From the NCBI RefSeq assembly GCF_051903065.1, contig NZ_CP178438.1: a stretch of 64,000 nt of DNA; one strand, written 5' to 3'. The position numbers and the translations under genes are program-made. Source of the stretch: Escherichia coli. Lineage in GTDB: Bacteria; Pseudomonadota; Gammaproteobacteria; Enterobacterales; Enterobacteriaceae. Shown here piece after piece: positions 1 to 42,957 of the stretch. The notes under the pieces are model-generated. The model saw only the letters and a program-made list of their open reading frames with translations. It ran no database searches and was not told where the DNA came from. Every line of letters starts with the position of its first letter. Positions within the stretch are counted from its first letter, which is position 1.

Positions 1-415
1 CAATGTTTACAGCAAACCGCCGGTGAACATTCGCGCGCGTTTTGACGATCGCGGCGATCTGAGCTTTATGCAACGTGAATCCGATGGGGAAAAGCAGCAG
101 CTTTCTAACGACCAAATCGATTTATACCGTTATCGTGCTGATCAGATCCGCCAGATTAGCGATGCCTTACGTCAGGGGAGAGTCGTGCTGCGCCAGGGGC
201 GCTGGCATGCGATGGAACAGACCGTGACCACCTGCGAAGGGCAAACCATTAAACCTGATTTAGATTCGCAGGCGATAGCGCATATCGAGCGCCGCCAGAG
301 CCGCTCTTCTGTTGATGTCAGCGTGGCATGGCTGGAAGCGCCCGAAGGTTCGCAATTACTGTTAGTGGCAAACTCTGATTTCTGTCGCTGGCAACCCAAC
401 GAGAAAACGTTCTGA
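1..415 (+). CDS. yjaH: C-terminal part of DUF1481 protein YjaH (5' end lies outside the window)
   Basis: Open frame running from the window edge to the stop at 415; position upstream of zraP matches the K-12 order hupA-yjaH-zraP. Identity by synteny, not by confident sequence recall. Confidence 0.55.
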   Translation, partial: NVYSKPPVNIRARFDDRGDLSFMQRESDGEKQQLSNDQIDLYRYRADQIRQISDALRQGRVVLRQGRWHAMEQTVTTCEGQTIKPDLDSQAIAHIERRQSRSSVDVSVAWLEAPEGSQLLLVANSDFCRWQPNEKTF

Positions 416-7280: not shown

Positions 7281-8822
<1,542 letters not shown>

Positions 8823-8907
8823 CCTTAAAGAAGCGTACTTTGCAGTGCTCACACAGATTGTCTGATAGAAAGTGAAAAGCAAGGCGTCTTGCGAAGCAGA
8901 CTGATAC

Positions 8908-8983
8908 GTCCCCTTCGTCTAGAGGCCCAGGACACCGCCCTTTCACGGCGGTAACAGGGGTTCGAATCCCCTAGGGGACGCCA
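8908..8983 (+). tRNA. gltV: tRNA-Glu (UUC) in the 16S-23S spacer
   Basis: GTCCCCTTCGTCTAGAGGCCCAGGACACCGCCCTTTCACGGCGGTAACAGGGGTTCGAATCCCCTAGGGGACGCCA, 76 nt with encoded CCA. Confidence 0.97.
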
Positions 8984-9176
8984 CTTGCTGGTTTGTGAGT
9001 GAAAGTCGCCGACCTTAATATCTCAAAACTCATCTTCGGGTGATGTTTGAGATATTTGCTCTTTAAAAATCTGGATCAAGCTGAAAATTGAAACACTGAA
9101 CAACGAAAGTTGTTCGTGAGTCTCTCAAATTTTCGCAACACGATGATGAATCGAAAGAAACATCTTCGGGTTGTGA

Positions 9177-12079
<2,903 letters not shown>

Positions 12080-12172
12080 ACAACGCCGAAGCTGTTTTGG
12101 CGGATTGAGAGAAGATTTTCAGCCTGATACAGATTAAATCAGAACGCAGAAGCGGTCTGATAAAACAGAATT

Positions 12173-12292
12173 TGCCTGGCGGCCGTAGCGCGGTGGTCCC
12201 ACCTGACCCCATGCCGAACTCAGAAGTGAAACGCCGTAGCGCCGATGGTAGTGTGGGGTCTCCCCATGCGAGAGTAGGGAACTGCCAGGCAT
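12173..12292 (+). rRNA. rrfE: 5S ribosomal RNA (rrfE)
   Basis: TGCCTGGCGGCCGTAGCGCGGTGGTCCCACCTGACCCCATGCCGAACTCAG ... GGGAACTGCCAGGCAT; 120 nt. Confidence 0.98.
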
Positions 12293-38921: not shown

Positions 38922-40271
38922 TTACTCAAACAAATTACTATGCAGTTTTTGTACCACCTGCTCGGCATCTTCGCCGGGCACCAGGAAGCACAGGTTATGG
39001 CTGGATGCGCCGTAACAAATCATGCGAATGTTGAACGGTTCCAGTACGCCGAATACCTCTTTGCCAACGCCGCAGGCTTTTGACAGGTCATTGCCAATCA
39101 ACGCGACCAGCGCCAGACCTTCTTCCACCTCCACCCGGCACAGTGCGGAAAGCTCCATCAGCAGAGATTGCGTTAGCAACGTATCGCCAGTGGAGGTTGA
39201 ACCGGTGGTATCAAGGGTTAATGCCACGCTCACTTCTGACGTGGTGATTAAGTCTACCGAAATATTATGCCGCGCGAGGATGCCGAAAACTTCCGCGAGG
39301 AAACCGCGAGAATGCAGCATATTCAGGCTGTGCAAAGTGAGCAGAGTCTGATTGCGACGAAGCGCCAGCGCGCGGAACAGCGGCGGATTTTCAGTTTTAT
39401 TGCACACCAGCGTACCACCTGCGCGTGGGTCTTTGCTGGAGCCGACAAAGACCGGGATATCGCTGCGTACTGCGGGTAGCAACGTTGCCGGATGCAGTAC
39501 TTTTGCACCAAAAGTTGCCATCTCTGCCGCTTCGGCAAACGCGATTTCATCAATGCGTTTTGCTGCGGAAACCACGCGTGGATCGGTGGTGTAGATGCCC
39601 GGGACGTCGGTCCAGATATCAACACGAGATGCGTGTAAAGCCTCCGCCAGCAAGGCTGCCGTATAATCGCTGCCTCCACGGCCAAGCGTCGTTGTTCGAC
39701 CTTTATTTTCGCTACCGATAAATCCCTGGGTGATCACTAAGCCTTCATTGAGGCGTGGGAGCAGCTGCAGCGCGGCCAGTTCCGCCAGCGCGGCTACATC
39801 TGGCTCTGCACGACCAAATCGGTCGTTGGTACGCATCACTTTACGTACATCAAACCACTGTGCCTGAACATCGCGTTCGCGCAGGATCTCAACAAACAGC
39901 AGGGTCGACATCAGCTCGCCGTGGCTGACCAGTTCATCTGTCAGCGCCGGAGACGTTGCCAGCGCCGCCGCTTCTGCCAGAACAGTAATGTTCTCCAGCA
40001 GACGTTCAATCTCTTCACGGATAACGTTCGGGTAACGCAGACGTTCCAGAATGGCAAACTGGATATTGCGGATTGCGTCGAGTTTTTCGAATCGCTCGCC
40101 AGGTTCCAGTCCTTCCGCTAAAGCGACCAGCAGATTAGTGATACCAGCAGAAGCCGAGAGGACAACTAAACGCACGTTGGCATCAGAAAGCACAATATCA
40201 GCGCTGCGGTTCATGGCGTCAAAATCAGCTACGCTGGTACCGCCAAATTTGGAGACAACAATTTCAGACAT
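38922..40271 (-). CDS. lysC: Lysine-sensitive aspartokinase III
   Basis: 449-aa ORF starting MSEIVVSKFGGTSVADFDAMNRSADIVL with C-terminal ACT domains. Confidence 0.95.
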   Translation of the reverse strand: MSEIVVSKFGGTSVADFDAMNRSADIVLSDANVRLVVLSASAGITNLLVALAEGLEPGERFEKLDAIRNIQFAILERLRYPNVIREEIERLLENITVLAEAAALATSPALTDELVSHGELMSTLLFVEILRERDVQAQWFDVRKVMRTNDRFGRAEPDVAALAELAALQLLPRLNEGLVITQGFIGSENKGRTTTLGRGGSDYTAALLAEALHASRVDIWTDVPGIYTTDPRVVSAAKRIDEIAFAEAAEMATFGAKVLHPATLLPAVRSDIPVFVGSSKDPRAGGTLVCNKTENPPLFRALALRRNQTLLTLHSLNMLHSRGFLAEVFGILARHNISVDLITTSEVSVALTLDTTGSTSTGDTLLTQSLLMELSALCRVEVEEGLALVALIGNDLSKACGVGKEVFGVLEPFNIRMICYGASSHNLCFLVPGEDAEQVVQKLHSNLFE

Positions 40272-40329
40272 AACTACCTCGTGTCAGGGGATCCATTTTC
40301 AGCCTTGGCACAAGGGAAGAGCGGAAGAC

Positions 40330-40570
40330 GGGTGGGCGCAGAGCGATACTTCGCTACTATTTTCACCCAGAAGTGCTCCACCACTTGCGAAACGCCCGAC
40401 TGCGAACGCTTCTGGTGACAACCCAGGGGATTCAGCCCCTGTAGCCGATGATGAACGTGGCCAGCCGTTCAATCACCTCGGCGATGCACCCCCTCAGGTG
40501 TTATCACAGGACTGGCTCCTCCAACACCGTTACTTGGGCAACGCGCCTCTTCTGGCCTGCGCTAGCGCAG
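40330..40570 (-). promoter_or_regulatory. Lysine riboswitch (L-box) in the lysC 5' leader
   Basis: Reverse complement contains GAGGCGCGTTGCCCAAGTAACGGTGTTGGAGGAGCCAGTCCTGTGATAACACCTGAGGGGGTGCATCGCCGAGGTGATTGAACGGCTGGCCACG..., which I recognise as the E. coli lysC leader; boundaries approximate. Confidence 0.8.
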
Positions 40571-40795
40571 GTAGTACATTTATAAATAAAGGGTGAGCGG
40601 GGCGGTTGTCAACGACGGGGTCATGCGGATTTTTCATCCACTCCTGGCGGTCAGTAGTTCAGCTAATAAATGCTTCACTGCGCTAAGGGTTTACACTCAA
40701 CATTACGCTAACGGCACTAAAACCATCACATTTTTCTGTGACTGGCGCTACAATCTTCCAAAGTCACAATTCTCAAAATCAGAAGAGTATTGCTA

Positions 40796-42445
40796 ATGAA
40801 AAACATCAATCCAACGCAGACCGCTGCCTGGCAGGCACTACAGAAACACTTCGATGAAATGAAAGACGTTACGATCGCCGATCTTTTTGCTAAAGACGGC
40901 GATCGTTTTTCTAAGTTCTCCGCAACCTTCGACGATCAGATGCTGGTGGATTACTCCAAAAACCGCATCACTGAAGAGACGCTGGCGAAATTACAAGATC
41001 TGGCGAAAGAGTGCGATCTGGCGGGCGCGATTAAGTCGATGTTCTCTGGCGAGAAGATCAACCGCACTGAAAACCGCGCCGTGCTGCACGTAGCGCTGCG
41101 TAACCGTAGCAATACCCCGATTCTGGTTGATGGCAAAGACGTAATGCCGGAAGTCAACGCGGTGCTGGAGAAGATGAAAACCTTCTCACAAGCGATTATC
41201 TCCGGTGAGTGGAAGGGTTATACCGGCAAAGCAATCACTGACGTAGTGAACATCGGGATCGGCGGTTCTGACCTCGGCCCGTACATGGTGACCGAAGCAC
41301 TGCGTCCGTACAAAAATCACCTGAACATGCACTTTGTTTCTAACGTCGATGGGACTCACATCGCGGAAGTGCTGAAAAAAGTAAACCCGGAAACCACGCT
41401 GTTCCTGGTAGCATCTAAAACCTTCACCACTCAGGAAACCATGACCAACGCCCATAGCGCGCGTGACTGGTTCCTGAAAGCGGCAGGTGATGAAAAACAC
41501 GTTGCGAAACACTTTGCGGCGCTCTCAACCAATGCCAAAGCCGTTGGCGAGTTTGGTATTGATACTGCCAACATGTTCGAGTTCTGGGACTGGGTCGGTG
41601 GCCGTTACTCTTTGTGGTCAGCGATTGGCCTGTCGATTGTTCTCTCCATCGGCTTTGATAACTTCGTTGAACTGCTTTCTGGCGCACACGCGATGGACAA
41701 GCATTTCTCCACCACGCCTGCCGAGAAAAACCTGCCTGTCCTGCTGGCGCTGATTGGCATCTGGTACAACAATTTCTTTGGTGCGGAAACTGAAGCGATT
41801 CTGCCGTATGACCAGTATATGCACCGTTTTGCGGCGTACTTCCAGCAGGGCAATATGGAGTCCAACGGTAAGTATGTTGACCGTAACGGTAACGTTGTGG
41901 ATTACCAGACTGGCCCGATTATCTGGGGTGAACCAGGCACTAACGGTCAGCACGCGTTCTACCAGCTGATCCACCAGGGAACCAAAATGGTACCGTGCGA
42001 TTTCATCGCTCCGGCTATCACCCATAACCCGCTCTCTGATCACCACCAGAAACTGCTGTCTAACTTCTTCGCCCAGACCGAAGCGCTGGCGTTTGGTAAA
42101 TCCCGCGAAGTGGTTGAGCAGGAATATCGCGATCAGGGTAAAGATCCGGCAACGCTTGACTACGTGGTGCCGTTCAAAGTGTTCGAAGGTAACCGCCCGA
42201 CCAACTCTATCCTGTTGCGCGAAATCACTCCGTTCAGCCTGGGTGCGTTGATTGCGCTGTATGAGCACAAAATCTTTACTCAGGGCGTGATCCTGAACAT
42301 CTTCACCTTCGACCAGTGGGGCGTGGAACTGGGTAAACAGCTGGCGAACCGTATTCTGCCAGAGCTGAAAGATGATAAAGAAATCAGCAGCCACGATAGC
42401 TCGACCAATGGTCTGATTAACCGCTATAAAGCGTGGCGCGGTTAA
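40796..42445 (+). CDS. pgi: Glucose-6-phosphate isomerase
   Basis: 549 aa from [34 protein letters not shown]. Confidence 0.96.
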
Positions 42446-42455
42446 TCATCGTTCA

Positions 42456-42552
<97 letters not shown>

Positions 42553-42615
42553 TCGATGCCGATATGTACATCGTATTCGGCAATTAATGCATAGCACGAT
42601 TAATTAAATAACCTT

Positions 42616-42652
42616 AAAAACAATGCCGACTATAAGTCGGCATTGTTTTATC
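42616..42652 (+). terminator. Rho-independent terminator downstream of pgi
   Basis: Hairpin caatgccgact-ataa-gtcggcattg followed by ttttatc. Confidence 0.75.
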
Positions 42653-42957
42653 AGATAAATCTCCTTGTCTGTGATTTAACGGAAATCATACCGTGAGGTT
42701 AATCCTAAAATAGATTTTTAATCGTGATTTATTTCGGAAAATACTCAGATTAATTACTTTTGCTTTTATTTTAACACTATGATTTTTAATGTTATTTATA
42801 TATAAGTTGTAGCTTATATTTGATATTCATTCCAATTATCCTAAAACCCCATCTCTAATTCCCCGCGCCGTAATTCGCATGCTTTAGTTGTGTATACTCG
42901 ATCCCGCCCGAAATGTTTTTGGGTAAATCTCCATTCATTCAATGAAGGGAAATTGTT

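Follow-up and report, generated by a model that had tools for sequence, protein, structure and literature searches.

The space between the divergent genes lysC and pgi of Escherichia coli raises the question of which element fills it, how this element acts on lysC, and whether the pgi promoter is intertwined with it. The whole stretch of DNA analysed here, referred to as the window, is 64,000 nucleotides long. It contains lysC, the gene of the lysine-sensitive aspartokinase III (38922..40271, minus strand; NF006570, 768 bits), and pgi, the gene of glucose-6-phosphate isomerase (40796..42445, plus strand, with its ATG at 40796; NF001211, 909 bits). The two genes are 524 bp apart (40272..40795). 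An initial annotation had described a 520-bp space with pgi divergent from lysC, a lysC leader of about 300 nt, and an L-box on the minus strand within this leader. The flanking genes are as claimed, and the leader measures 306 nt, or 58% of the intergenic space. The L-box is borne out by a match to its Rfam family, a RefSeq riboswitch feature, helix covariation, and published experiments.

The element is almost certainly the lysine riboswitch of E. coli lysC, which acts as an OFF switch within the 306-nt leader of the mRNA for aspartokinase III. The riboswitch is already known: it is in Rfam, it is annotated in RefSeq, and its mechanism has been dissected experimentally. It has reportedly been known since 2003, and the K-12 lysC element is said to have been described by Sudarsan in 2003, Rodionov in 2003, and Caron in 2012. 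Binding of L-lysine by RNA of identical sequence is known from the literature.

The lysC leader and its aptamer

In the published numbering, the G of the lysC AUG is G309 (PMC10946432). The AUG thus spans +307..+309, transcription starts at G40577 (+1), and the 5′ untranslated leader is 306 nt long (40272..40577). All leader features described below are on the minus strand. The start codon (40269..40271) coincides with G309, the point at which Rho/NusG termination has been reported (PMC10946432).

The window aligns collinearly with K-12 MG1655, the offset being 4,192,962. Over 801 bp (NC_000913.3 4233100..4233900), the two sequences differ by a single mismatch at window position 40616, which is C here and T in MG1655 (plus strand). 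The substitution lies at −39 of the lysC promoter, upstream of the −35 element. Since the sole mismatch falls outside the leader, which is base-for-base identical to that of MG1655, the leader is the experimentally studied molecule. The element is the same as the E. coli K-12 lysC riboswitch (Ghosh 2024 and others), in an identical leader and gene context. The published K-12 landmarks also fall on the expected bases: the AUG at G309, Site1 at 250–253 reading UCUU, and the C-rich rut region near 240. Of 5426 complete E. coli genomes, 5425 carry a 651-bp stretch around the intergenic space, and many complete chromosomes of the species match it with 100% identity.

A covariance-model search of positions 39000..42000 (cmscan, Rfam 15) yields a single significant family, RF00168 (the Lysine riboswitch aptamer), matched on the minus strand at 40363..40559. 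The match scores 99.5 bits (E = 1.4e-26; gathering score 30) and is full length, covering model positions 1–182 of 182 without truncation. It is also the one lysine match in a scan of the whole 64 kb at the gathering threshold (E = 3.1e-25). Genomes annotated by RefSeq/PGAP carry a riboswitch feature at coordinates matching exactly 40363..40559. The aptamer occupies 38% of the intergenic space, and its 3′ end lies 91 nt upstream of the lysC AUG on the same strand. The core blocks AGAGG, GCCGA, UGUCAC, and GUGGAG are all present and align to upper-case consensus positions of RF00168. A 20-base DNA pattern taken from the aptamer core has a single occurrence in the window and none in 100 shuffles.

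Two annotation details may be recorded separately. The MG1655 reference record has no riboswitch feature at the lysC leader, whereas the PGAP-annotated genomes have one. A match to sR14, an archaeal C/D-box family, inside lysC (39326..39378) reaches 18 bits, below the gathering score of 38, and is attributed to chance.

The aptamer spans +19..+215 and consists of five helices, P1–P5, arranged around a junction. Projection from the Rfam alignment places P1 at +24..29/+205..210, with a possible seventh pair at +23/+211, P2 at +34..42/+89..97, P2a at +49..56/+75..82, P3 at +101..112/+121..131, P4 at +132..142/+149..158, and P5 at +160..166/+194..200. In addition, GCCAG (+62..+66) is complementary to CUGGC (+114..+118) and forms the L2–L3 kissing loop. 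The P5 loop of E. coli is 18 nt longer than the Rfam consensus. The region of P5 and its loop (40378..40418) is prone to insertions: approximately 25–70 further nucleotides are present in this loop in Enterobacter sp. BIGb0383 and Klebsiella sp. BIGb0407 (alignment columns 290–357), whose aptamers are otherwise conserved.

A DNA-pattern scan (AGAGGCGC...CGCCGA...TGTCAC) of species-representative genomes finds at least 120 loci in many phyla, mostly Firmicutes. Nine enteric-like leaders among the matches listed were aligned with that of E. coli, and the covariation statistics rest on these 10 sequences. All nine loci have a lysC homologue of 73–90% identity downstream of the aptamer, as do several more distant loci among the matches listed. 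The divergent upstream neighbour is pgi in seven of the nine, so the lysC/pgi arrangement is conserved.

Across the 10 enteric leaders, the 51 projected aptamer pairs are 91.8% paired, versus 41–48% in slid controls. Changes on both sides are seen in 18 pairs and 47 cells, a figure matched by none of 500 shuffles, and most of these compensatory changes lie in P2, P2a, and P3. P1 is invariant and 100% paired, and the four core blocks are invariant as well. In the kissing loop, three of five pairs have changed on both sides, and 68% of the cells pair in a MAFFT alignment that is not structure-guided in loops. One of the aligned loci, in a Proteobacteria MAG (L094) whose LysC is 90% identical, carries an insertion of about 330 bp that separates the promoter-like block from P1. 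The insertion contains an internal direct repeat, with …GTGGCGGTGTTGGC…AACGCGAAATGCTTTGGTAATAC… occurring twice; it may represent a small element, mobile or repetitive, within the leader.

A 6-bp hairpin (CCUGCG-CUAG-CGCAGG, +7..+22; 40556..40571) directly precedes P1. It lies outside the Rfam model and is present in every fold. Three of its five inner pairs have changed on both sides among the 10 enteric leaders. No discussion of this hairpin was found in the available papers on the lysC riboswitch. It may protect the leader from 5′-end-dependent attack by RNase E or set the course of co-transcriptional folding.

Divergent promoters and the dyad box

The lysC promoter is situated immediately upstream of the leader. 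Its −35 element, TTGACA (40607..40612, minus strand), is read from the sequence and conserved in most aligned enteric leaders. The probable −10 element, TATTTA (40583..40588, minus strand), lies within the block TTTATTTATAA, which is conserved across the enteric leaders. The two hexamers are spaced by 18 nt, and the −10 element ends 5 nt before the start site. It was missed by a simple promoter scan because only three of its six positions match the consensus.

The pgi promoter (40725..40760, plus strand) was found by a consensus promoter scan. It comprises a −35 element ATCACA (40725..40730) and a −10 element TACAAT (40749..40754), spaced by 18 nt and conserved in six of eight genera. A single pgi start, an A located 36 nt upstream of the ATG, has been mapped by 5′RACE and earlier work (PMC2759082), which places it at A40760. 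The pgi promoter string printed in that paper, ACCATCACATTTTTCTGTGACTGGCGCTACAATCTTCCA, is identical to the window. The distance from the pgi start is 183 bp to the lysC start (40577) and 166 bp to the 5′ edge of the aptamer. The pgi promoter elements are located 148–183 bp beyond the lysC start, past the lysC promoter (40583..40612), and the −35 hexamers of the two promoters are 112 bp apart. The initial annotation was thus right that lysC and pgi share the intergenic region, but its expectation of pgi promoter elements inside or adjacent to the riboswitch does not stand; a pgi promoter inside the riboswitch is ruled out by the 5′RACE start (PMC2759082). The promoters are arranged back to back, with no overlap of either with the riboswitch.

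Downstream of pgi, the window contains a REP-type naRNA4 match (42475..42546, plus strand, 81 bits) and a match to the sRNA family STnc430 (42612..42761, minus strand, 66 bits). Three further naRNA4/REP matches are found at 18601, 52147, and 56376. A complete rRNA operon is located at 7281..12290 (plus strand) and comprises 16S, a tRNA (8908..8980), 23S, and 5S; a StyR-44 family match (9061..9169, 125 bits) lies between the spacer tRNA and the 23S start.

Between the divergent promoters sits a conserved dyad box, ATGCGGATTTTTCAT (40623..40637), at −46..−60 of the lysC promoter. The box has the form ATG-N9-CAT and is of the T-N11-A type. It is conserved in Escherichia, Pseudescherichia, Enterobacter, and the MAG L094, and partly in Klebsiella sp. 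No description of this dyad was found in the available papers. Its form makes ATGCGGATTTTTCAT a candidate site for a LysR-type regulator, possibly ArgP, and the dyad might also influence pgi.

The dyad bears on whether lysine controls lysC mainly at the promoter, through ArgP, with the leader RNA playing a minor part at most. ArgP, a LysR-type activator that lysine inactivates, is reported to stimulate initiation of lysC transcription unless it is lysine-bound (Marbaniang and Gowrishankar 2011, as cited in PMC12925634), and regulation of lysC at the promoter level is also mentioned in PMC10946432. The conserved T-N11-A box described above fits such control. However, riboswitch fusions driven by the lacUV5 promoter are repressed by lysine approximately 2- to 8.5-fold, and a construct without the riboswitch is not repressed (PMC10946432). 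Because the lacUV5 fusions keep lysine repression, ArgP control is excluded as the sole explanation. The 99.5-bit aptamer and its covariation-supported helices likewise speak against promoter-only control. It is therefore highly improbable that the promoter accounts for most of the lysine response. ArgP promoter control and the riboswitch are additive layers, not alternatives.

Alternative folds of the leader and the OFF switch

The leader downstream of the aptamer contains the elements on which the riboswitch acts. A small hairpin (+223..+236) follows the aptamer. The C-rich, G-poor stretch at +231..+270 (40308..40347), recognised by base composition as 50% C and 17% G in 30-nt windows, corresponds to the published rut site and RNase E target region. 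It includes Site1, UCUU, at +250..+253 (40325..40328), as defined in PMC10946432. A second UCUU at +258..+261 (40317..40320) would be Site2. Further downstream are the anti-SD strand CCUUGUG (+263..+269; 40309..40315) and the Shine-Dalgarno strand CACGAGG (+295..+301; 40277..40283), which pair with each other. The Shine-Dalgarno (SD) sequence is the GAGG within CACGAGG, 5 nt before the AUG at +307. The surrounding block, GACACGAGG, hardly varies among the 10 enteric leaders.

Folded without constraints, the leader adopts the ON form as its minimum-energy structure (−127.1 kcal/mol). In this fold, +190..+214 (40364..40388), which overlaps the 3′ strands of P5 and P1, pairs with +244..+268, which contains the second UCUU and the anti-SD strand. 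The resulting anti-P1/antisequester helix, which engages the anti-SD strand with +190..+197, corresponds to the anti-P1 stem of PMC10946432. In the OFF form, P1 closes and the anti-SD strand pairs with the SD strand instead. The local minimum-energy hairpin of +256..+310 consists of CCUUGUG/CACGAGG, buries the SD, and has an energy of −11.0 kcal/mol. Both helix sets can form, and they are mutually exclusive because they share the strands +205..+211 and +263..+268.

Both structures are preserved across genera. The ON-state helices are 83–93% paired in the 10 enteric leaders, compared with 43–64% in slid controls. The SD-sequester helix is 92.9% paired and almost invariant. For this helix and for P1, the support is conservation rather than covariation, because nearly no compensatory changes are available. 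The sequence of Site1 varies among the leaders (UCUU, UUUU, UAUA); in contrast, GCUCUUCCCUUGUGCC is nearly invariant among the 10. The identity of the aptamer, the two alternative pairings, and their conservation are thus direct observations on this locus and its relatives.

By itself, the nearest-neighbour model does not show the expected loss of SD accessibility in the ligand-bound state. Forcing P1 costs 12.8 kcal/mol, which fits a need for ligand and tertiary contacts in the OFF state. The anti-SD strand is paired with a probability of 0.98 in the ON ensemble, with the anti-P1 strand as its partner, versus 0.42 in the OFF ensemble. The pairing probability of the SD is about the same when P1 is forced (0.70) as when it is blocked (0.67), in a model that leaves out ligand, tertiary, and co-transcriptional effects. 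Site1 is paired at 0.58 with P1 forced versus 0.02 with P1 blocked, opposite to the published model for Site1. With P1 forced, ViennaRNA favours another platform fold (−23.2 kcal/mol) over the sequester hairpin (−19.8 kcal/mol). The switch is proven by the experimental literature and not by thermodynamic modelling alone.

The mechanism is very probably the following. Without lysine, +190..+214, comprising the 3′ strands of P5 and P1, would pair with +244..+268. The helix would hold CCUUGUG and part of the C-rich stretch in a duplex. With the anti-SD strand held, the SD would be free of the sequester helix and lysC would be translated. Binding of lysine to the five-helix aptamer (+19..+215) would close P1 and release +244..+268. 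The released CCUUGUG would then pair with CACGAGG and hide the SD, and the freed C-rich stretch would become accessible to RNase E, at Site1 (+250..+253), and to Rho. Rho together with NusG would terminate transcription at the start codon (G309) and further inside the gene.

For lysine binding, repression of translation, cleavage by RNase E, and termination by Rho, the evidence comes from published experiments on the identical sequence. Lysine binding sequesters the SD and exposes the RNase E sites, and the anti-P1 stem shields these sites in the ON state (Caron 2012, as summarised in PMC10946432). The rut site is near position 240, and Site1 (250–253) is part of it (PMC10946432). In a purified system, Rho/NusG termination at G309 rises from 31% to 56% with lysine, and additional Rho-dependent stops occur at G349, U354–357, and A364; without Rho, full-length RNA is made with or without lysine (PMC10946432). 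In the same study, the rho-R66S mutation weakens regulation by lysine, rne-131 does so for the shortest fusion, and deletion of Site1 leads to higher RNA polymerase occupancy early in the open reading frame (ORF).

These data also bear on the idea that the leader is a classical transcription attenuator, acting through an intrinsic terminator or a lysine-rich leader peptide instead of SD sequestration with Rho and RNase E. Lysine riboswitches of Firmicutes often have intrinsic terminators, and the leader is long enough to hold one. However, no intrinsic terminator, defined as a hairpin followed by a U-run, is found on the minus strand within 40272..40577. The one terminator-like site seen in the leader lies on the plus strand, at 40342..40355. 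None of the three short minus-strand ORFs of the leader (36, 57, and 35 aa) is rich in lysine, and the shortest begins upstream of the transcription start. The conserved elements downstream of the aptamer are the anti-SD and SD strands. An attenuator of either kind is thus absent from the lysC strand, and this reading is less probable still than control mainly at the promoter. The plus-strand site, a hairpin followed by a T-run, is itself the antisense image of the leader hairpin at +223..+236.

That the plus strand codes for protein and the RNA-family match is incidental has a negligible probability: the plus-strand ORFs at 40051..40596 (181 aa) and 40593..40796 (67 aa) exist mechanically but are not annotated as coding sequences in RefSeq, the first has no Pfam match and is antisense to lysC and the riboswitch, the second has one Pfam match at E = 0.033 (14 bits versus a cut-off of 36), and insertions and deletions between genera fall without regard to reading frame.

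The riboswitch may have a further output. A leader fragment of approximately 250–309 nt, terminated by Rho or cut by RNase E, could possibly act in trans as a small RNA. Some SAM riboswitch fragments in Listeria act in trans as small RNAs. Taken jointly, the accessory roles considered here, namely a protective or folding function of the 5′ hairpin, a dyad that serves as an ArgP site and affects pgi, and a trans-acting leader fragment, are unlikely.

The lysC switch among known riboswitches

Many lysine riboswitches of Firmicutes use intrinsic terminators, and that of Bacillus subtilis lysC has a terminator/antiterminator pair. The B. subtilis lysC L-box belongs to the same aptamer family as the E. 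coli element, regulates the same enzyme, and is likewise an OFF switch triggered by lysine. The two differ in the expression platform, since E. coli lysC relies on sequestration of the SD, a rut site, and RNase E sites in place of the terminator and antiterminator. The transcriptional variant of B. subtilis and the translational variant of E. coli are contrasted in PMC13273304.

Within E. coli, lysC resembles the FMN riboswitch of ribB and the TPP riboswitches of thiM, thiC, and tbpA, whose translational platforms also modulate Rho-dependent termination. In ribB and thiC, as in lysC, C-rich regions are exposed in the ligand-bound state. The lysC leader stands apart in that its RNase E sites are directly exposed in the OFF state, a mode termed "nucleolytic repression". 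In thiM and btuB, unlike lysC, mRNA decay has been described as a mere consequence of blocked translation.

The riboswitch was recognisable from the raw sequence at the first reading. The analysis assigns exact window coordinates to the aptamer, its switching helices, the rut and RNase E region, and the two divergent promoters. The lysC leader has practical relevance in lysine overproduction and AEC resistance, where mutations in it deregulate aspartokinase III (PMC6254735).
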